Assembly (NCBI GenBank): GCA_018814025.1
Contig: JAHJAM010000012.1
Span: 1 to 51,993, forward strand
Length of the DNA stretch: 51,993 nt
DNA from: Patescibacteria group bacterium
GTDB lineage: Bacteria; Patescibacteriota; Patescibacteriia; UBA9934; GWF2-40-263
Direction: 5' to 3'
Position 1 is the stretch's first letter. Each line of letters begins with the position of its first letter. Position numbers and translations under genes: made by a program. The notes beneath the pieces are model-generated. The model saw nothing but the letters and a program-made list of their open reading frames with translations, had not been told where the DNA came from and ran no database searches. Positions 4,779-41,075 of this stretch are shown piece by piece.

Positions 4779-5093
4779 TTATTCAAAGCTTAATTCGTCG
4801 TCGTCACCGTCAGCGTCCGGATCCTGGCTTAAGGCTTCGATGATCATGTCCATTTTTTCGTTCAGGGCTTTTAACTGTCTGGCCACATCATCATCGTGGC
4901 CGCGCGGCGCACTGCGGAAGGACGGCTTTTCATAGCGGTCGGTTCGGTCAAAGCGCTGACCGCCGGAGCGCGGGCGCGTGTCTCGGCCTTCTTTTCTGCG
5001 GAAGCATTCGAAACAGAGAACCGGTTGCTGGCCAGTGGGTCGGAATGGGACTTCGCAGGGCGAATGGCACTGGTCGCAAGTGGCTGGGTGCAT
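4779..5093 (-). CDS. CxxC-x17-CxxC zinc-ribbon domain protein. As assembled it starts at an internal Met, and the frame is open upstream to 5237.
   Basis: MHPATCDQCHSPCEVPFRPTGQQPVLCFECF is the family signature, and the gene sits directly downstream of a DEAD-box helicase, as is typical. See the frameshift finding. Confidence 0.75.
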   Translation of the reverse strand: MHPATCDQCHSPCEVPFRPTGQQPVLCFECFRRKEGRDTRPRSGGQRFDRTDRYEKPSFRSAPRGHDDDVARQLKALNEKMDMIIEALSQDPDADGDDDELSFE

Positions 5094-5109
5094 GGGGGGC
5101 TTTCCACCG

Positions 5110-5186
5110 CGCGGGCCGCCGAACTTGCTGCCGCCACGCGGGCCGCCGAACTTGCTACCGCCACGCGGGCCGCCGAACTTGCTGTC
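5110..5186 (-). repeat. About 2.9 tandem copies of a 27-nt coding repeat (SKFGGPRGG)
   Basis: Units at 5110-5136, 5137-5163 and 5164-5186 (partial), with 1-3 mismatches. Confidence 0.85.
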
Positions 5187-5243
5187 GCGGCTGTTATTCT
5201 TTCGATCCCCAGAGTTATTCTTATTAAAAAAGTTTTTTCATAA

Positions 5244-6539
5244 TTATGCTGATCGGCGCCGTTTGGATTTATTTGGTCCGAAGCGTCGGTGCGAGTTTGA
5301 TTTATTTCGTTTAGGCGTGAAGGGGCGATGGCGACCGTGGCGGTTGGGCCGAGGCTGGCCCGGCGGCTTGGCTCCGTGATCGCCGGCGGGCGCGGCTTTT
5401 TCCAGCTTGATCATTTTTCCGGTCGCGGTTTTGATCGGGATCGTGATGTTGATCAGTTTTTCGATCTGCTGGATATCTCTTTTTTGCGCGGGCGCGGCAA
5501 AGGAAATGGCTTTGCCGGATTTGCCGGCGCGGGCTGTGCGGCCGATGCGGTGCACATAATCCTCAATTTGGTCCGGCAGATCATAGTTCAACACCAGCTG
5601 GACATCCTCCACATCAATGCCTCGGGCCGCGATGTCGGTGGCCACTAAGATGCGGTGCTTGCCGGTGGCAAAGCCTCTAAGGGCGTTTTGGCGCTGGCTT
5701 TGCGATCGGTTGGAATGGATTTCATCCGCGCTATGGCCCATTTGGCGAATTTTGCGCGCGATTTTGGTGGCGCCATGCTTGGTGCGGCTGAAGATTAGGA
5801 CCGAGCCTTTATATTCTTCCAAGATTTGTTCTAAAAGATCCATTCTTTCCGTGCGCTGGACCATGATAATTTCTTGATCGACTTTGTCGGCCGTGGTGCC
5901 GGATTTGGCCACCTCGATGCGCAAGGGTTTCTTCATGTATTGATTGGCGATGGCCGCAATGGCATCGGGCATGGTGGCGGAAAACAGCATGGTTTGGCGA
6001 TCCTTGGGCACGACCGTGAGAATGCGCTTGAGCTGGGGCGCAAAACCCATGTCCAGCATGCGATCGGCTTCGTCCAAGATCAGAATGCCGACATTGGAAA
6101 GATTGACGCGTTTTTGCTCGAGGTGATCGATCAAGCGACCGGGCGTGGCCACGATCACATGCGGCTTGGCCTTGAGCTGGCGAATTTGCGGCTGCGGGTT
6201 GATGCCGCCGATGATTAAGGCGGTGCGCAAGCCCACGGCGCCCGCGATCTTGCGAAAAGTTTCTTCCACTTGCACGGCCAGTTCGCGGGTGGGCAACAAG
6301 ACCAGTCCGACTTGCTTGGTGGTGCCGATGTGCTGGAGCACGGGAATGGCAAAAGCCAAAGTTTTGCCGGAACCGGTTTGGGCGATGCCCACCACATCTT
6401 CGCCGGCCGTGGCCACCGGAATGGCTTTGAATTGGATCGGGGTGGGGTGGTCAAAACCAAGCGCGGCAATGCGTTTGAGCAAGCCTTGGGAAATTCCCAG
6501 GCCCTGAAAGTCTTGTTGTTTGAGTTCATTTCTAGACAT
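5244..6539 (-). CDS. DEAD-box ATP-dependent RNA helicase with a basic C-terminal tail
   Basis: Q-motif region, AQTGSGKT, PTRELA, DEAD, SAT, HRIGRTARAG, and an Arg/Lys-rich tail. Confidence 0.93.
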   Translation of the reverse strand: MSRNELKQQDFQGLGISQGLLKRIAALGFDHPTPIQFKAIPVATAGEDVVGIAQTGSGKTLAFAIPVLQHIGTTKQVGLVLLPTRELAVQVEETFRKIAGAVGLRTALIIGGINPQPQIRQLKAKPHVIVATPGRLIDHLEQKRVNLSNVGILILDEADRMLDMGFAPQLKRILTVVPKDRQTMLFSATMPDAIAAIANQYMKKPLRIEVAKSGTTADKVDQEIIMVQRTERMDLLEQILEEYKGSVLIFSRTKHGATKIARKIRQMGHSADEIHSNRSQSQRQNALRGFATGKHRILVATDIAARGIDVEDVQLVLNYDLPDQIEDYVHRIGRTARAGKSGKAISFAAPAQKRDIQQIEKLINITIPIKTATGKMIKLEKAAPAGDHGAKPPGQPRPNRHGRHRPFTPKRNKSNSHRRFGPNKSKRRRSA

Positions 6540-9003: not shown

Positions 9004-9219
9004 ATGGATTCACATCGGCGCAGTATCGTTAAGGCGATCAGTTGGCGCATGATTGCGTCTTTGACGACCTTTGCTTTAGTTTATCTTTTCACGGGTGAAA
9101 TCACCTTATCCGTTCAAGTGGGAATTCTTGATGTGGTTTTGAAAATGATTTTTTATTACGGTCATGAGCGAGTTTGGAATAAGATTAATTATGGAATTAC
9201 GGCGAAAAAAGCCAATTAA
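9004..9219 (+). CDS. DUF2061 family small membrane protein
   Basis: RSIVKAISWRMIASLTTF...YYGHERVWNKI. Confidence 0.7.
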   Translation: MDSHRRSIVKAISWRMIASLTTFALVYLFTGEITLSVQVGILDVVLKMIFYYGHERVWNKINYGITAKKAN

Positions 9220-9245
9220 TACCACAACCGGGTTGTGGTATTTTG
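9219..9245. terminator. Bidirectional terminator
   Basis: Palindrome TACCACAACCGGGTTGTGGTA followed by TTTT, between convergent genes. Confidence 0.65.
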
Positions 9246-9246
9246 A

Positions 9247-10443
9247 TTAGGGATTGAGCAGGGTATCAAGCTCTGTTTTTTTGTTTAAAAAATCCGGCAG
9301 CTCTTCTTCGGATAAACTTTCGCCTTTGGGGAATTCGATTTCCAGGGGGTTAACCAGCTCGCCGTGGACTTTGACTTGATAATGCAAGTGCGGACCCGTG
9401 GAATGGCCGGTGGAGCCCACGTAACCGATCACTTGTCCTTGTTCGACTTCCGAGCCCACGCGCAGGCCTTTGGCATAGGCGCTCAGGTGCGCGTATTGAG
9501 TTTGATAAGTATCATTGTGGTGAATATCGATAAAGTTGCCATAAGGACCATTCCAGCCCAAAGAGGTAATGGTGCCGTGGCCCACGGCCAAGACGGGCGT
9601 GCCCAGGGGTGCGGCGTAGTCAATGGCGCGATGCGTGCCCAGCACTGAGGTAATCGGATCAAAGCGAGCGTAGGTAAAGCCGGAGGAGATTCGGTTGTAT
9701 GACAACGGGGCTTTGAGAAAAGGACGAATCAGGGAACTGCCGGCCGCATCGTAATAGCCGGTTTCCTCATTGGTATTAGTGTAGCGATAAGCGTAACTGG
9801 TTTGTCCGACGTTGGTGAAGCTGGCCGCGTGAATGCGGCCCACGCCCGCGTCCTGGCCGGCGCGGGTGCGCTTTTCATAAACCACCACAAAAGAATCCCC
9901 GGTTTGCACTTGAGTGGCGAAGTCGATTTCCCAGGCTAGAGTTTCGGCTAAGTCGAGAATCAGAACTTCGGACAGGCCGGCGTTTAGACCGGATAAAAAC
10001 ATGGATTCATCGATTGTCACTTCAGCTCGTTCAATCGTAACGTCGTAGGGGATAGGGACGACTTCGGTTTGATATCCGTCAGCCGTGAGATCAACCACCA
10101 CCAGATCTTCTTTGTTGGGTTCGTATTCCAGAGTTTGGCGCTGGCCGTCGACCGAAACCACGCGGAAAGTTTTATCCAGCCGCACATTGGTGAAGTCAAA
10201 AGTTTCAGCCGCGGCTTCGACAATATCCAGAGCTTGCTGATAATCAAAATTCAAATTTTCTAAAACACTGGTAAAAGTATCGCCCTCGGCCACGGTATAG
10301 GTTTGTTCCGTGCGCACTGGTTCAGCCGGCGCAAATTCCGCACCGGGTTGAGTTTCGGCTCGGCCGGGTAAAGATGATTGCTCATACCAAAAATAGCCGC
10401 CAGCGGCCAGGAATAGCATAATTAGTAAGGGCAGATATTTCAT
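9247..10443 (-). CDS. M23 family metallopeptidase (peptidoglycan endopeptidase)
   Basis: HRAIDYAAPLGTPV and GSTGHSTGPHLHYQV motifs, plus an N-terminal TM anchor. Confidence 0.9.
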   Translation of the reverse strand: MKYLPLLIMLFLAAGGYFWYEQSSLPGRAETQPGAEFAPAEPVRTEQTYTVAEGDTFTSVLENLNFDYQQALDIVEAAAETFDFTNVRLDKTFRVVSVDGQRQTLEYEPNKEDLVVVDLTADGYQTEVVPIPYDVTIERAEVTIDESMFLSGLNAGLSEVLILDLAETLAWEIDFATQVQTGDSFVVVYEKRTRAGQDAGVGRIHAASFTNVGQTSYAYRYTNTNEETGYYDAAGSSLIRPFLKAPLSYNRISSGFTYARFDPITSVLGTHRAIDYAAPLGTPVLAVGHGTITSLGWNGPYGNFIDIHHNDTYQTQYAHLSAYAKGLRVGSEVEQGQVIGYVGSTGHSTGPHLHYQVKVHGELVNPLEIEFPKGESLSEEELPDFLNKKTELDTLLNP

Positions 10444-14875: not shown

Positions 14876-15169
14876 TTACTGCACTTCACTGGGCGTCAGG
14901 CGCCACCAGTAAGTGATGGTTCGTTCCGGGGTGCATTCGATGATTAGGTTTTTGTCCGGCGAACAGGTATGAATAATATCGTCCTGACCCACCGGAGCAC
15001 CTTCCCTGGTAAAGCGGAAATCGTAAGTGTTATCGCCAAGATTGATCACATGAACCTCGATGATCATTTGGTTCTTGAGCGAGCCCAGGAAATGAACTTC
15101 GAATTGCTCGTTGCTATTGAAGGAAAAGACCTCGCGCCTGAGATCGGCTTCAACTTTGCTCCAGCCCAT
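14876..15169 (-). CDS. Hypothetical protein (97 aa)
   Basis: ATG 15169 is preceded by AGGAGGG (15180-15174). No recognisable domain. Confidence 0.5.
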   Translation of the reverse strand: MGWSKVEADLRREVFSFNSNEQFEVHFLGSLKNQMIIEVHVINLGDNTYDFRFTREGAPVGQDDIIHTCSPDKNLIIECTPERTITYWWRLTPSEVQ

Positions 15170-35713: not shown

Positions 35714-35750
35714 TAATAAAAAACAGCCACGGAACGCTCCGTGGCTGTTG
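35714..35750. terminator. Bidirectional terminator at the left edge of the two-gene island
   Basis: Stem CAGCCACGG / CCGTGGCTG, with an A-run upstream that becomes a T-run on the minus strand. Confidence 0.7.
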
Positions 35751-35769
35751 AAGTTAGAGAGAAAAGGAA

Positions 35770-37011
35770 CTAAGCGGAGGCCGGCTTGGTGCGCTTGCCG
35801 CGCTTCCGGTCCGCGGCTGCGTTCTGCCGGCGCGTTTCCGCGGCTTTCTTGGCGGCCAAGGAACGCTTGCGGCGCAGTTCTTCCTCAGGCGTGAGCTCAC
35901 GGACCGGCTCGGCCGGCTTGCTCTCGCCGTTGTCCGGGGCTTGGACCGTGGTTGTGACTTTATCGGCCTGGTCTTCCAGATACGCTTCCAGCACGTCCAG
36001 GAAGTAACCGACGGCTGAGGCTCGTTTGGTGCGATTGGCTTGTACGATCCGGCTCTTCCCGGCAACCTTGTCAGGCTGCAGCAGGCCCCGAAGAATTCGG
36101 TTGCACTTTCGGTAATCTTCCAGGCTCATGTCCGGGCCGAAGACCGAGGCTTCTAGCTTCACATGCAACTGAGCCCAGTGGCGATTGAGCACGTCCCACA
36201 CCGGCTTTTGCTCATTGTCGTCCCAAACGCACCCGGCCGGCAGCTCCGGCTTGTTGATGACTTGATCGGACAAGGCGCGCACTTCCAGCGCTTCCATCTC
36301 CGCTTCGCTCAAGATCGAGCTTAGCCCGATCTGATAGGGGATGGCTTCCATGGTGGAGAATTTTTCGATCAAACGAACCGTGACCGGTTCGCCGATCGGG
36401 GGCTGAGCACTGCCGCGGGCCAGCACGATCCACTTGCCCGAGGGATGAATAGTGCTGATCTGCAGATGCCCGCTCTTGGAAACCGATGGATAGAAGATGA
36501 CTTCGCTCTTGAGCGAAAAGCGCTTGCCCGGATCCGTCCATTCGCGCTTGGACAAGCTGAGCGGATCCAAGAACAGCACGCGCCCGTGGCGATAGTAGGT
36601 GTCATCGCCGTCCGCGTCTTTCTGGCCGGTGGGCTCGTACTTGTAGGCGATCACGAAATCGTATCGCTTTTCGAACTCGGGATGCATGAACAGACTCGAT
36701 GCCGGACGGACCTGCGTGTCGAAGTCGTCATCCAAAATGGCATAGGCGGATTCGATCGGCATCTTCAGGATGCCGTTTTCCGGCAGCTTGACCGGTTTTT
36801 GTTGACGCTGGGACAGCTTGTTCGCGAGCTCGGTTCGATGTTTGGAGTGGATCTCGAGGTTAGTGAAGTGCGCCTTGCGAGGCTGATGAAAGACGAAGGG
36901 CACCACATCATATTCATCCGCGAACACGCCCAGCATCTCAAACATCCGGTGATGCCACTCCAGGCCTTCGGGCACGACGAGCTTGGGATTTTTCTCCGGC
37001 TTTTTCGACAT
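35770..37011 (-). CDS. Hypothetical protein, 413 aa, with a basic Arg/Lys-rich C-terminal tail and no recognised domain
   Basis: Long ORF with GGAGG (37023-37019) 7 nt upstream of the ATG and a near-consensus promoter. GC looks higher than in the neighbours. Confidence 0.7.
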   Translation of the reverse strand: MSKKPEKNPKLVVPEGLEWHHRMFEMLGVFADEYDVVPFVFHQPRKAHFTNLEIHSKHRTELANKLSQRQQKPVKLPENGILKMPIESAYAILDDDFDTQVRPASSLFMHPEFEKRYDFVIAYKYEPTGQKDADGDDTYYRHGRVLFLDPLSLSKREWTDPGKRFSLKSEVIFYPSVSKSGHLQISTIHPSGKWIVLARGSAQPPIGEPVTVRLIEKFSTMEAIPYQIGLSSILSEAEMEALEVRALSDQVINKPELPAGCVWDDNEQKPVWDVLNRHWAQLHVKLEASVFGPDMSLEDYRKCNRILRGLLQPDKVAGKSRIVQANRTKRASAVGYFLDVLEAYLEDQADKVTTTVQAPDNGESKPAEPVRELTPEEELRRKRSLAAKKAAETRRQNAAADRKRGKRTKPASA

Positions 37012-37081
37012 GGAAAGACCTCCTGCACGGTGTGCGGTTTGTTGTCTAAACTAGGGCTGAACCCTTTCGAATCGACCGCGC

Positions 37082-37110
37082 AATATATCAAGAAATCAGC
37101 TATTTGTCAA
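37082..37110 (-). promoter_or_regulatory. Near-consensus sigma70 promoter for the 413-aa gene
   Basis: On the minus strand: TTGACA (37110-37105), 17-nt spacer, TATATT (37087-37082). Confidence 0.55.
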
Positions 37111-37182
37111 GGCTTTTTGACTCAAACTGCCAATAAATCGATATTTATCAATGATATCTGGGTTTTTCTTTGTCCCAACACC

Positions 37183-37211
37183 TTGACAAAACCACATTTT
37201 TTTGCTAATCT
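37183..37211 (+). promoter_or_regulatory. Near-consensus sigma70 promoter for the 266-aa gene
   Basis: TTGACA (37183-37188), 17-nt spacer, TAATCT (37206-37211). Confidence 0.55.
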
Positions 37212-37246
37212 ATGCGGTTCAGAAACTAATCACAAGGAGGAGACAC

Positions 37247-38047
37247 ATGTCTTCTGAACTTAATCCGGAAGCTGCCAGAAATGCTTTTTTCGCTTCGTTT
37301 CCAGCTGACCATCAACAAGTGGCCGAAGAGCTGCTCTCAGTCATGGATGACATGGTGCTCAATCATGAGCTGAAGTCCGGCAGTATCGATCAGCTGATTG
37401 AGCTGGATCATCAGATGAGCGCGAGCCAAGCTGATGGCCATGAGCCAAGCTCGGATCTGCCTCAGAATCTGAACGTGGGACACACCCGAGCGATCATCGC
37501 TTATCTGGCTCTGGCCTACGGCATCGTCATCTCGGCGGCCGAGGAATTTGACCTGGAGAACACCGATCACACCCTGTTGCTGATCGAGGCGGTCAAATCG
37601 GAAGCCGACACCGGTGAACCAGATGAGCCAACGCCGGTGCCGCCGCCGATTCCGTCTGAAGCGGATGACGAGGCTGACTTTGACCCGGGCGCGCTGTCCG
37701 CGGTCAATTCCGTGCCGCTTCTGCCTGATCTAACCGAGGCTGGTGAACCGCCGCCGATGCGGTCGGCGCCCATGGACAACTGGCCAAGCGTTAGAGAGTC
37801 GCTGAAAGTGCTCATCGAGCAGATCCGGGATCTGCAGAATGTGCAAAAATCGATTCAGCTTAGCCTATCGCCCAAGAGCGAATTTGAAGCCGTGGAGGAG
37901 AAAATTGTTCTTCTGTACGCACATCTGGCTGAGCGAGCGCGATACCTGCAGCGCATGGCCGGACGTCGACACCGGTTTCAGGCGCTTTATCAGAAAGCCC
38001 TCAAATACATTGAGGACTCAACACCGCCTGGATGGTTAGCATCCTAA
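37247..38047 (+). CDS. Hypothetical acidic protein, 266 aa, with a Pro/Asp/Glu-rich central linker and a helical C-terminus
   Basis: AAGGAGGAG (37234-37242) lies 4 nt upstream of ATG 37247. No recognised domain. Confidence 0.7.
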   Translation: MSSELNPEAARNAFFASFPADHQQVAEELLSVMDDMVLNHELKSGSIDQLIELDHQMSASQADGHEPSSDLPQNLNVGHTRAIIAYLALAYGIVISAAEEFDLENTDHTLLLIEAVKSEADTGEPDEPTPVPPPIPSEADDEADFDPGALSAVNSVPLLPDLTEAGEPPPMRSAPMDNWPSVRESLKVLIEQIRDLQNVQKSIQLSLSPKSEFEAVEEKIVLLYAHLAERARYLQRMAGRRHRFQALYQKALKYIEDSTPPGWLAS

Positions 38048-38091
38048 CTGCTAAGGTGGAATTCTACCGTTTTTTCAAGGCAGGCCTTTTC

Positions 38092-38121
38092 GCCACCCGA
38101 AGTAATTCGGGTGGTTTTTTT
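38092..38121 (+). terminator. Intrinsic terminator at the right edge of the island
   Basis: Stem CCACCCGAA / TTCGGGTGG followed by T7. It is preceded by a weaker hairpin with a T-run at about 38055-38075. Confidence 0.8.
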
Positions 38122-38144: not shown

Positions 38145-41075
38145 ATGCCCACTATGGACTTACTTGAAGGCTTAAATCCGGAGCAAAAATCAGCGGTGGA
38201 GCATCAAAGCGGTCCGCTCATGATCGTGGCCGGAGCCGGCACGGGCAAAACCATGGTGATCACGCGCCGTATTGCTTGGTTGATTGATCAAAAGCTGGCG
38301 GCGCCGGAAAACATCCTGGCCCTGACTTTTACGGACAAGGCGGCCGGGGAAATGGAAGAGCGCGTGGATTTGCTTTTGCCTTACGGCTACGTGGATATTC
38401 AAATTTCAACTTTCCATTCGTTTTGTGAAAAAGTGTTGCGGGAATTCGGGGCGGAGATCGGCTTGTCTCCGGATTTCAAGGTACTCGCCGAATTGGATGC
38501 CTGGCTGTTGGCGCGGGCTCGGTTTTCAGATTTTGCTTTAGATTATTACCGCCCGCTGGGCAATCCCACCAAATATTTGCGCGGGCTGTTGACTCATTTT
38601 TCTCGAGCCAAAGACAATGCACTGACCGCGGATCGGTATTTGGAATATGCGGCCGAACAAGCGGCCAATCAGGACCAGGCTTTGGATCAAGCCGAAGCCG
38701 GCCGGCTGAGCGAACTGGCCAGCGCCTATCATCAATATCAGCAAATTCTACTGGCCAATGATTCTTTGGACTTCGGGGATTTGCTTTTATACGTTTGGCA
38801 GCTGCTCAAAACGCGGCCCAAAATTTTGCAGCAATTGCAAGCCAAGTATCAATACCTGCTGGTGGATGAGTTTCAGGATACCAATCGCATTCAGTATGAA
38901 ATCGTGAAGCTTTTGGCCGCGCCGAAAAACAATCTGACGGTGGTGGGGGATGATGATCAGGCGATTTACCGTTTTCGCGGCGCGTCCGTGGCCAATATCC
39001 TGCAATTTCAAAAGGATTTCCCGGATTGCCAAAAAGTCGTGCTGAAAAATAATTATCGGTCCGGGCAAGCAATTTTGGATTTGGCTTATTCATTTATTCA
39101 AATGAATAATCCGGATCGGCTGGAAACCCAAATGGCGGATCCGGCCGCGAAAAAGCTGACGGCCCAGACCGAGCACCCGGGGCTGATTGAACATTTGCAC
39201 TATCCCAATTTAGAGCAAGAAGCCGCGGCCGTGGCGCGCAAAATTCAAGAATTGCAGGCCGCTGGACCGGATTTGCACTGGGGTGACTTCGCGATTTTAA
39301 TTCGGGCCAATGATGCGGCCGCGCCGTTTATCCAAGCCCTGGAGCGCCGGCAAATTCCTTTTCGCTTTATGGCTTTGCGCGGGCTTTACAGCAAACCGAT
39401 TATTTTGGATTTGCTGGCCCACCTGCGAATTATCGATCAGCCTCATGACAGTCCGAGTTTTTATCGCATCTTGAACCAGCCGATTTATCAGATTCCGCCC
39501 GAGGCTGTGATTGAATTGAATCAGCTGGCGCGGCGCAAGGGCAAAAGCCTGTATGAAGCCTGCCGCTTGGCTTCACTGGCTAATCTGCCGCCTCAAGTTT
39601 TCGCCCGGGTCAATACGGTCTTGTCTGATTTGGATAAATTTCAGCAGCTGGCTCGAAATAAAAAATGTTCGGAACTGTTAATCACTTTGGCTCGGGACGG
39701 GCATTATGTGGAATTTTTGCGTTCCCTGACTGAGCGGGAATCGCACGAGGCGTTTCGCTGGCTTCAACAGCTGTATGAACGAATTTTGAGCTTTGAAAAC
39801 CGGCACGATGATAAATCTTTGGCCAACTTCATGGCTGAATTCGCTTTTGAACGGGACGCGGGCGAAGAAGGGGCGCTGGCGCAAAATTTGGAAGAAGGGC
39901 CGGAAGTGGTGAAAATCATGACCGTGCACAGTGCCAAAGGCTTGGAATTTAAATATGTTTTCGTGATTAATTTGGTGGACCAGCGCTTTCCCACGCGCCG
40001 CCGCCCCGAAGCCATTCCTTTGCCGGATGAATTGCTGGATGAACAGACCACGGCCGGGGATTGGCACTTGGCAGAAGAGCGACGTTTGTTTTACGTGGCT
40101 TTGACTCGGGCAAAGCAGGGCTTATTTTTGACCTCGGCCGATGATTACGGGGGCGCGCGCAGAAGAAAACTATCCCGTTTTCTGATCGAAGCCGGTTTTG
40201 CCAAAACTCCGGAATTGCTGAACGAGCAAACCGCGGGCACTTTTGACGCTCAGGAGGAAATCACCGTGACCTTGGAGCCGCTGACCATTCATCTGCCCAA
40301 ACAATTTTCTTTCACCCAGCTGACCGCGTTTCGCACCTGCCCGCTGCAATATAAGTTCGCGCATGTTTTGAAGATCCCGGTTTTCGGCAAGTGGACTTTT
40401 TCTTTCGGCAAAACCATGCATAACACCTTGCAGCAGTTTTTCAAGCTTTGGATCGAACGCGTGGGCAGCCGGCAGGGAAATTTATTCGCGGGCCAAAATC
40501 AGCCCGCGGACGGAAGCTTGCCGGTGAAGCTGGAAGAACTGCTGGAGGCCTATCAAAAATCCTGGCAGGATGACTGGTATCAAAATGATGATCAGCGTGA
40601 AGAGTATCGAACCAAAGGCCGTGCCGCTTTAAAGGATTATTATCGGCAAATGGGGGATCAACCGCCTGAACCCCACATGCTAGAACAGGGCTTCACTCTG
40701 AAATTTGGAGCCGTCATCATCAAGGGGCGAATCGATCGGATTGATCGCTGCGCGGGCGGCGTGGAAATTATCGATTATAAAACCGGCAAAGCCAAAACCG
40801 AAAAGACCCTGGATCGCGGCGATAAGGAACAGCTGCTTTTATATCAGATCGCGGCCCGCGACGTGCTGGGCTTGCAGCCGATAAAATTAACTTATCATTA
40901 CTTGGAAGATAATTCTCAGGTGTCGTTTTTGGGCTCGGATGACGAATTGCTGGATTTGCAAGAACAGATTTTGGAGCGCGTGGAGATGATTCGCCATAGT
41001 AATTTTTCCGCTCTGCCCGGCTTCCATTGCCGGTTTTGCGACTTTGCGGACATTTGCGAATATCGAGAAACTTAA
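38145..41075 (+). CDS. UvrD/PcrA-family SF1 helicase fused to a C-terminal PD-(D/E)xK nuclease with a Cas4/AddB-type 4-Cys cluster
   Basis: Helicase motifs AGAGTGKT, FTDKAAGEM, LLVDEFQDTN, VGDDDQAIYRFRGA, NYRS, TVHSAKGLEF and LFYVALTRAK. Nuclease motifs RTCPLQYKF, GRIDRIDR...IIDYKTGK, QLLLYQ and CRFCDFADIC. Confidence 0.9.
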   Translation: MPTMDLLEGLNPEQKSAVEHQSGPLMIVAGAGTGKTMVITRRIAWLIDQKLAAPENILALTFTDKAAGEMEERVDLLLPYGYVDIQISTFHSFCEKVLREFGAEIGLSPDFKVLAELDAWLLARARFSDFALDYYRPLGNPTKYLRGLLTHFSRAKDNALTADRYLEYAAEQAANQDQALDQAEAGRLSELASAYHQYQQILLANDSLDFGDLLLYVWQLLKTRPKILQQLQAKYQYLLVDEFQDTNRIQYEIVKLLAAPKNNLTVVGDDDQAIYRFRGASVANILQFQKDFPDCQKVVLKNNYRSGQAILDLAYSFIQMNNPDRLETQMADPAAKKLTAQTEHPGLIEHLHYPNLEQEAAAVARKIQELQAAGPDLHWGDFAILIRANDAAAPFIQALERRQIPFRFMALRGLYSKPIILDLLAHLRIIDQPHDSPSFYRILNQPIYQIPPEAVIELNQLARRKGKSLYEACRLASLANLPPQVFARVNTVLSDLDKFQQLARNKKCSELLITLARDGHYVEFLRSLTERESHEAFRWLQQLYERILSFENRHDDKSLANFMAEFAFERDAGEEGALAQNLEEGPEVVKIMTVHSAKGLEFKYVFVINLVDQRFPTRRRPEAIPLPDELLDEQTTAGDWHLAEERRLFYVALTRAKQGLFLTSADDYGGARRRKLSRFLIEAGFAKTPELLNEQTAGTFDAQEEITVTLEPLTIHLPKQFSFTQLTAFRTCPLQYKFAHVLKIPVFGKWTFSFGKTMHNTLQQFFKLWIERVGSRQGNLFAGQNQPADGSLPVKLEELLEAYQKSWQDDWYQNDDQREEYRTKGRAALKDYYRQMGDQPPEPHMLEQGFTLKFGAVIIKGRIDRIDRCAGGVEIIDYKTGKAKTEKTLDRGDKEQLLLYQIAARDVLGLQPIKLTYHYLEDNSQVSFLGSDDELLDLQEQILERVEMIRHSNFSALPGFHCRFCDFADICEYRET

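Follow-up and report, generated by a model that had tools for sequence, protein, structure and literature searches.

We analysed a 51,993-nt stretch of DNA from a Patescibacteria group bacterium (assembly GCA_018814025.1, contig JAHJAM010000012.1; hereafter the window), focusing on two divergent open reading frames (ORFs), geneA and geneB, located between tatD and a gene for a UvrD-type helicase. We give an even chance to the reading that these genes form a vertically inherited, clade-restricted, position-fixed and fast-evolving pair, in which geneA encodes an adaptor or scaffold derived from a J-domain and geneB its acidic partner. A sequence-only reading had described the two genes as a self-contained, horizontally acquired and undescribed module. 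Both divergent ORFs were confirmed (Table 1), as were the previously undescribed protein families and the separation of the unit from its housekeeping neighbours by expression signals and, for geneA, by the G+C content of synonymous third codon positions (GC3); the proposed origin was not.

Relatives of geneA were few: in about 15 billion proteins, the detectable family came to six members, every one of them from an uncultivated organism. Searching 5.8 billion clusters by indexed words yielded the homologues P0002 and P0003, an exhaustive search of 1.84 billion representatives with an HMMER profile brought in P0005 and P0006, and a second geneA profile search returned no additional homologues; the geneB search retrieved only geneB itself. 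Two further loci, L086 and L087, were added by a TatD-based scan of metagenome contigs. Related metagenomic contigs shared the architecture metG-cvpA-tatD-geneA<->geneB-UvrD-like helicase. In L001/L002, the order was cvpA-tatD-geneA<->284-aa gene-helicase, and the 284-aa protein was 36% identical to geneB (E = 2e-44). In L005, metG-cvpA-tatD was followed by geneA (P0006) facing a 263-aa acidic gene and then by the start of the helicase gene, and in L004 (JGI 3300037851, 1813 nt) the geneA homologue P0005 was divergent from the helicase start, 154 nt apart. In L086 and L087, metG-cvpA-tatD preceded a large convergent ORF that had a divergently oriented partner; the 450-aa ORF of L086 was a geneA homologue (hhalign probability 97%, E = 5e-11). 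An assignment of the L086 protein to XisH was rejected (E = 0.31). All related loci that were recovered had the module at one shared site, lying between tatD and the UvrD-like helicase gene or adjoining one of them in L001/L002, L005, L086 and L087, with geneA alone in L004.

Among 80 GTDB species representatives fetched via TatD, neither geneA (0/80) nor geneB (0/80) was found; their TatD proteins reached at most 50% identity by best segment, and they were labelled Ca. Uhrbacteria, Parcubacteria or Patescibacteria. In L009 (Ca. Uhrbacteria), the closest by methionyl-tRNA synthetase (MetRS), tatD was followed by glyA and other genes unrelated to the module, which places the origin or arrival of the module at the base of a narrower clade. 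The module is restricted to a narrow, poorly sampled, Uhrbacteria-like clade of Patescibacteria, and its position is fixed within that clade. The closest TatD among 185,579 GTDB r232 species genomes was 50% identical by best segment, so the clade of the window is unrepresented in that collection. The MetRS of the window reached 65% identity in a Ca. Uhrbacteria metagenome-assembled genome, and several of the nearest such genomes were labelled 'uncultured Gammaproteobacteria' despite Patescibacteria-like synteny.

The proteins of the pair had diverged strongly at this fixed position (all identities are to the window proteins; the helicase was compared over its N-terminal 138 aa). In L001, TatD was 77.5% and the helicase N-terminus 90.6% identical, compared with 47% for geneA and 36% for geneB. 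In L004, the helicase N-terminus was 78.3% and geneA 28% identical, with geneB absent at the site. TatD and geneA were 59.2% and 27% identical in L005 and 61.6% and 22% in L086, geneB being undetectable in both; in L087 TatD was 62.6% identical, no geneA was found and geneB was again undetectable. The gene pair evolves far faster than its neighbouring genes. The block in L087, where the divergent partner (from 8631, plus strand) encodes an acidic protein with a Pro/Asp/Glu linker, has either diverged past recognition or been replaced; its GC content was 66-70%, against about 55% in the flanks.

The base composition of the two genes differed. Against a window mean GC of 49.7%, geneA had a GC content of 58.9% and a GC3 of 0.744, the highest of 46 window genes (z = 3.5 relative to the 44 other window genes, 0.558 ± 0.053), mainly through C-ending NNY codons plus AAG (TTC 0.80 vs 0.39; ATC 0.82 vs 0.45). 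The geneB values (GC about 55%, GC3 0.599, z = 0.8) were no outlier; its GC excess lay at codon position 1 (0.656) and therefore reflects an amino-acid composition rich in Asp, Glu, Ala and Pro. Relative-synonymous-codon distance was unexceptional for both genes (z = 0.6 and 0.9), so that the distinct composition and GC3 bias attributed to the whole module held for geneA only and did not extend to codon-usage distance. The geneA GC3 excess recurred in each of the four loci that offer a flanking gene for comparison (window, 0.74 vs 0.56; L001, 0.80 vs 0.58; L005, 0.78 vs about 0.52; L004, 0.91 vs 0.78). Being retained over deep divergence, it is a stable property and not a mark of unameliorated foreign DNA; selection, for instance for expression, would explain it more simply. 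The genome of L004 is itself GC-richer (flank GC3 0.78), and P0005 there keeps an intact HPDK. A second GC-rich stretch of the window (4896-6539, 0.58-0.59) comprised a DEAD-box helicase gene (5244-6539; GC3 0.665, z = 2.0) and an adjoining 115-aa ORF (GC 0.62).

These data bear directly on the proposal that the unit is a recently acquired foreign island or a mobile-element remnant. Such an origin would fit the GC3 outlier geneA (z = 3.5), the near-absence of Shine-Dalgarno (SD) sites elsewhere in the genome, the terminators bracketing the unit, and the unrelated genes after tatD in L009, the closest GTDB relative found. However, the module was conserved at its position across the lineage, with the same architecture in loci down to 59% TatD identity, and the geneA GC3 excess persisted in all comparable loci, the opposite of amelioration. 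No integrase or transposase was found in or adjoining the module and no direct, terminal inverted or att-like repeats flanked it; the nearest tRNA gene (821-895) was not adjacent. No relative of the module proteins was found in phage or plasmid records by tblastn or in mobile-element collections, and geneA patterns scanned against viral contigs and JGI metagenomes gave no hits. Horizontal acquisition was thus not supported, given the conserved position across loci with TatD 59-78% identical and the recurring GC3 excess, and neither was the mobile-element remnant, given the missing integrase, flanking repeats, adjacent tRNA gene and phage, plasmid or viral-contig relatives. Recent acquisition is contradicted, and we consider the island reading very improbable; an ancient acquisition by the common ancestor of the clade may have occurred.

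The second part of the favoured reading, the J-domain origin of geneA, rests on remote similarity. In the predicted layout of the protein, an N-terminal and central region (about 260 aa) precedes a helical domain of J-domain origin, after which a disordered linker leads to a basic helical tail. Neither geneA nor geneB matched any family in Pfam, NCBIfam, PHROGs or PADLOC, and the claim that both lie outside known families stands for these collections, with the qualification that geneA has a remote relationship to J-domains. Alignment with hhalign of a six-member C-terminal sub-alignment to a J-domain alignment gave a score of 34.1 (E = 4e-6, probability 87%), compared with 8.7 ± 1.7 (maximum 14) for 100 column shuffles, and the score was still 22.2 when only the four members lacking HPD were used. 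A profile of the six segments retrieved 14 PDB sequences at E <= 10, of which 14/14 were J-domain proteins (best E = 0.027), including dnj-2, dnj-12, DNAJA1, an Hsp40, Sec63, DNAJB12 and RabJ, with the best alignment extending into helix III. When the L086 segment was searched against all PDB sequences with phmmer, the top match was the DNAJC16 J domain (2cug, E = 0.01), followed by further J domains (E = 0.3-0.8) mixed with spurious nanobody matches. A J-domain hidden Markov model (HMM) scored 13.1 bits on L086 and 7.1 bits on P0005, values that 0/2000 shuffles reached in each case. Only the inclusion of the L086 homologue made the link convincing: with five members, hhalign gave E = 0.03 over 25 columns, the HMM at most 7 bits, and the PDB profile search returned no J domains. 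Taken together, the profile comparisons indicate that residues ~268-350 of geneA derive from a J-domain.

The loop between helices II and III varied among the members. The J-like segments read DMSLEDYRKCNRILRGLLQPDK...FLDVLEAYLED in the window protein, ...KKGRVKFHPDKK in P0005 and FGVKRTTSYADLKKARRLVAADKHPDK...IQAAFERALE in L086. In the hhalign alignment, HPDK of L086 fell on QPDK of the window protein. The deep-branching members L086 and P0005 retained HPD, and the remaining members read QPD (window), HTD (P0002), SVD (P0003) and ADK (P0006), so that HPD was lost in 4/6 members of the family. The H-to-Q change in HPD (H33Q) abolishes J-domain function and is a standard inactivating mutation (PMC1906734). 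AlphaFold2 placed helices at 271-283, 297-311 and 321-352, with a predicted local distance difference test (pLDDT) score of about 80-85 in helices II and III within an overall poor model (mean 54); residues ~270-350 were the sole confidently modelled part and were helical. The geneA protein thus has a new J-domain-derived architecture whose HPD loop has decayed in the sub-lineage of the window.

For the N-terminal ~260 residues of geneA, the prediction was a mixed alpha/beta structure rich in beta strands at its centre, and a six-member N-terminal profile found no PDB sequence match for them; this novel region is presumably the client- or target-binding part. A match to RdgC (2owy; 15 bits, E = 0.085) in one profile search was rejected, as it was not reproduced by the six-member N-terminal profile and conflicted with the predicted strands. 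The public gene call for geneA (P0001, 305 aa) starts at Met109 and misses 108 N-terminal residues together with the SD-preceded start. These residues were conserved among the homologues, and AGGAGG stood 7 nt before the first ATG, which shows that the 413-aa form is the right one and that P0001 is truncated.

We next considered the expression signals, which lay largely within the 235-nt intergenic region holding two promoters and an inverted repeat (Table 1). The geneA promoter was the best sigma-70 match of the entire 52-kb window, was kept in L001 and L003, and had similar counterparts in L004 and L005. For geneB, the -10 element matched the consensus at only 3/6 positions, but TGn precedes it as an extended -10; its stretch was near-identical in L001, and L005 carried TTTTTTTGCTAATAT. 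The description of both promoters as near-consensus accordingly held for geneA (11/12) only. The inverted repeat described as overlapping a -35 box was confirmed as GTCAAggctttTTGAC; together with the geneA -10 and -35 boxes it was common to the window, L001 and L003, and L005 had the variant palindrome TGTCAAGAGATTCTGACA. The part of L004 that was read, where geneB is absent at the site, showed no such palindrome. Across loci, the promoters were much better conserved than the proteins.

Table 1. Features of the geneA-geneB locus, in window coordinates
Feature	Position	Strand	Description
geneA	35770-37011	minus	ORF, 413 aa
geneB	37247-38047	plus	ORF, 266 aa, isoelectric point (pI) 4.46
J-domain-like region of geneA	35962-36210	minus	residues ~268-350: helix I-like WDVLN, insertion, helix II 297-311, QPD loop, helix III 321-352
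QPD tripeptide	36070-36078	minus	geneA residues 312-314; column where L086 and P0005 have HPD
Arg/Lys-rich C-terminal tail of geneA	35773-35889	minus	residues ~375-413, predicted helical; charge varies among homologues
geneA intrinsic terminator	35722-35749	minus	12-bp stem, 4-nt loop, minus-strand T-run
geneB terminators	38055-38115	plus	weak 5-bp hairpin 38055-38068; strong 10-bp hairpin 38092-38115 with T-run
geneA promoter	37082-37110	minus	TTGACA-17-TATATT, upstream TG, score 11/12
geneB promoter	37183-37211	plus	TTGACA-17-TAATCT, extended -10 (TGc)
Inverted repeat GTCAAggctttTTGAC	37106-37121	none	overlaps geneA -35 box; candidate operator
geneA 5' untranslated region (UTR)	37012-37075	minus	AGGAGG at 37019-37024; two small stem-loops; transcription start predicted
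geneB Shine-Dalgarno	37235-37240	plus	AGGAGG

The SD sites proved as real and as unusual as had been claimed. AGGAGG was found at only 3 of about 50 window gene starts, namely geneA (7 nt from ATG), geneB (6 nt) and a 97-aa orphan starting at 15169, and the module sites were the only ones for 20 kb in either direction. They recurred on module genes in related loci, where neighbouring genes were without them. The two small stem-loops of the geneA 5' UTR were kept in L001 and L003 through changes on both stem sides (stem 1, GCAC/GUGC vs GCGC/GCGC; stem 2, GGG(U)U..CCC vs GGCA..UGCC vs AAGG..CCUU). The folds of the geneA and geneB 5' UTRs were not better than shuffles (z between -0.8 and +0.4), and the idea of an SD-sequestering hairpin was dropped since the fold energies resembled those of shuffles.

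The 12-bp hairpin next to geneA terminates this gene, as its T-run lies on the minus strand, and may additionally block read-through from tatD; equivalent hairpins followed the homologues in L001 and L003. On the geneB side, the strong hairpin also occurred in L001. The strong terminators reported on both flanks were thus found beside geneA (12 bp) and at 38092-38115 (10 bp), the additional hairpin at 38055-38068 being weak (5 bp). With its own promoters, SD sites and terminators, the pair is a self-contained two-gene unit. The best promoter of the window, full SD sites, private terminators and the preference for C-ending codons suggest that geneA and geneB would be highly expressed.

Housekeeping genes (about 50 starts) almost never carried an SD site; their upstream sequence was A/T-rich (..AAAT/TAAT ATG), many starts abutted the preceding stop, and the same near-absence held in L005 and L001. 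The lineage appears to initiate most genes independently of SD sites. The 97-aa orphan (14876-15169, minus strand, with signals upstream to about 15230) had no Pfam match and a module-like expression style, with a promoter TTGACAAAACC...TAACAT (10/12), AGGAGG 5 nt before ATG and its own terminator. L005 contained an acidic 189-aa orphan (9372-9941, minus strand) with a GAGGAGG SD site, no Pfam match and a sequence unrelated to geneA or geneB, around which local GC was raised (9201-9600, 0.62). This gene hints that SD-bearing, GC-richer orphans form a class in the clade. The right-hand neighbour of the module, at 38145-41075 (plus strand), was a 976-aa single-chain UvrD-type helicase with a C-terminal PD-(D/E)XK nuclease fusion, ending in the Cys-rich motif CRFCDFADIC; this helicase gene is the conserved neighbour on that side.

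The rapid divergence and the autonomous signals also fit a conflict or host-interaction locus, in which diversifying selection would act on a lineage-specific factor for defence, counter-defence or episymbiosis. Divergence of the pair far outpaces that of its flanks, L087 keeps the architecture with unrecognisable proteins, both genes are orphans with their own expression signals, and other SD-bearing orphans without Pfam domains exist (window 14876-15169; L005 9372-9941). However, disordered-linker-rich proteins would also be expected to diverge fast, no nuclease, NTPase, protease or other effector domain was found, and by eye (no predictor was used) no signal peptide or membrane segment was evident in either protein. 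The neighbours are housekeeping genes and not a defence island, the module was not found in phages, plasmids or viral contigs, and there was no weighty PADLOC hit (best E = 0.037). We consider a conflict locus unlikely. The more specific proposals of a defence system and of a toxin-neutraliser pair found no support: the sole PADLOC hit was PDC-M01B (E = 0.037, 11.7 bits) over 55 residues of geneA, with none for geneB, and Pfam and NCBIfam showed no toxin or antitoxin domain in either protein. The divergent orientation and the sizes of 413 and 266 aa likewise do not agree with a type II toxin-antitoxin system, and a literature search for J-domain defence systems returned nothing comparable.

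In the geneB protein, a Pro/Asp/Glu-rich linker joined an N-terminal domain (about 110 aa) to a helical C-terminal one (about 90 aa). The protein had no PDB-sequence match; matches to the GST C-terminal domain (E = 0.22) and to CHMP3 (E = 1) were rejected as chance. In the window, the charge pattern was as described, with a basic tail on geneA and an acidic partner (pI 4.46, Pro/Asp/Glu linker). The interacting basic/acidic pair deduced from it did not extend across the family, since two geneA homologues had a pI of about 5.5 and L004 had no geneB. The partners in L005 and L087 resembled geneB in size, orientation, acidity and linker and are probable, though unproven, geneB homologues.

Several results weigh against the reading of the pair as a J-domain-derived protein with a conserved acidic partner. 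The Pfam DnaJ model (PF00226) gave no hmmscan hit in the window protein or in any homologue, even at E <= 10. The J-domain HMM and the reference alignment were built from an ad hoc set of 15 J-domain sequences, and on the window protein alone the HMM scored 0.6 bits, a value reached by 206/2000 shuffles. Single PDB E-values were marginal (0.01-1.3), and the confident alignment covered mostly helix II and the loop. The AlphaFold models were poor (mean pLDDT 45.6 with a 3-sequence alignment and 54.1 with 5 sequences), and Foldseek found nothing at E <= 0.001 in the PDB or among the viral models of BFVD; the J-like domain of RabJ appeared at the non-significant E of about 1.9, from a low-confidence model. 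The tail after the J-like domain was basic in 4/6 members and acidic in P0006 and the L086 protein. Regarding the pair, geneB was missing at the L004 site, and the 482-aa protein of L087 (6955-8403, minus strand) had no detectable similarity to geneA and is a positional analogue only. The same applies to the partners in L005, L086 and L087, which had no significant similarity to geneB (hhalign E = 0.069 for L005; BLAST E > 3). The window contained no DnaK gene, and no ribosomal-protein gene that could serve as a reference for the predicted high expression.

The tail and the decayed loop also raise the alternative that geneA is an abundant nucleic-acid-associated structural protein, of the nucleoid or the ribosome, with geneB as an acidic chaperone or antagonist and the J-like segment as a relic without a link to Hsp70. 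The Arg/Lys-rich tail, which is of the AKK/PAKK type in P0002, the loss of HPD in 4/6 members and expression signals that are the strongest of the window are consistent with such a role, and Foldseek leads to small beta-barrels (MiaB TRAM, eIF2alpha S1, SSB/RPA OB folds) offer a hint. However, these leads were non-significant and came from low-confidence models, and the tail is acidic in two members. Furthermore, HPDK is canonical in two members, and those that have lost HPD still preserve the helix II pattern; the J-like segment is therefore seemingly still under constraint. In our judgement, this alternative is improbable.

Under the favoured reading of a J-domain-derived adaptor or scaffold, the ancestral geneA protein probably worked as a co-chaperone or adaptor of Hsp70 (DnaK), because the two deep-branching members keep the HPD loop; it would have recruited DnaK to whatever the N-terminal region binds. 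The window protein is most likely a J-like scaffold that triggers DnaK ATP hydrolysis weakly or no longer, since the loop in its sub-lineage reads QPD, HTD or SVD, and it may still dock on a target, plausibly nucleic acid via the basic tail. Expressed from the facing promoter, geneB would most plausibly bind or modulate the geneA protein, much as CbpM restrains the DNA-binding co-chaperone CbpA, and the inverted repeat may serve as an operator coupling both promoters. A fuller version, which we regard as quite unlikely, is an Hsp70-linked regulatory system in which a highly expressed pseudo-J protein would dock on nucleic acid or a client and either sequester DnaK or act independently of it, the acidic partner would antagonise it, and interaction with hosts or phages would drive the rapid evolution.

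Among known systems, geneA can first be compared with the J-domain family (Hsp40/DnaJ, PF00226). As in class III/C members (DjlA, Sec63, auxilin), the J-domain of geneA is not N-terminal and is joined to an unrelated, family-specific targeting region, and the helix II-loop-helix III pattern [ST]xx(D/E)[LIFY]KKAxRxLxxxxHPDK...F..I..A[FY]E.L is shared, most clearly by L086 and P0005. By contrast, the match lies under the Pfam detection threshold, an insertion of 11-17 residues separates helices I and II in the sub-lineage of the window, HPD is replaced by QPD, HTD, SVD or ADK in 4/6 members, the N-terminal 260 aa are novel, and the J-like domain is trailed by a charged tail. A second comparison is with pseudo-J proteins such as Pam16/Tim16, which have a J-like domain without HPD; known examples come from eukaryotes (mitochondrial import motor) and pair with a true J-protein. 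They keep the J fold with a degenerate HPD loop, a combination predicted for geneA as well and one that implies regulation or scaffolding and not stimulation of the Hsp70 ATPase; geneA differs in having no known true J-protein partner and no homology beyond the J fold.

The third comparison, CbpA-CbpM of E. coli, extends to the logic alone: a small partner gene lies beside the gene for a J-domain protein, part of which plausibly binds nucleic acid. The cbpA and cbpM genes are co-transcribed, whereas geneA and geneB are divergent with separate promoters, and geneB is a 266-aa, acidic and partly disordered protein compared with the small CbpM. Outside the J motif, geneA has no similarity to CbpA, and geneB has none to CbpM, which has a MerR-like fold. 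CbpM acts via the J-domain of CbpA to block its co-chaperone activity as well as its DNA binding (PMC4063869); in CbpA the J-domain is N-terminal (PMC4063869), in contrast to the C-terminal location in geneA.

The practical reach of these findings is limited by a family of six members from uncultivated organisms only, whose function is inferred. For the biology of the lineage, they show that a foreign-looking block can be an old, vertically kept and fast-evolving native locus, which calls for caution in composition-based island calling in Patescibacteria. To the J-domain family, geneA adds a new architecture in which a novel 260-aa domain precedes a C-terminal J-like domain followed by a charged tail, and the natural HPD-to-QPD transition in its family may be usable for studying the change from co-chaperone to pseudo-co-chaperone.

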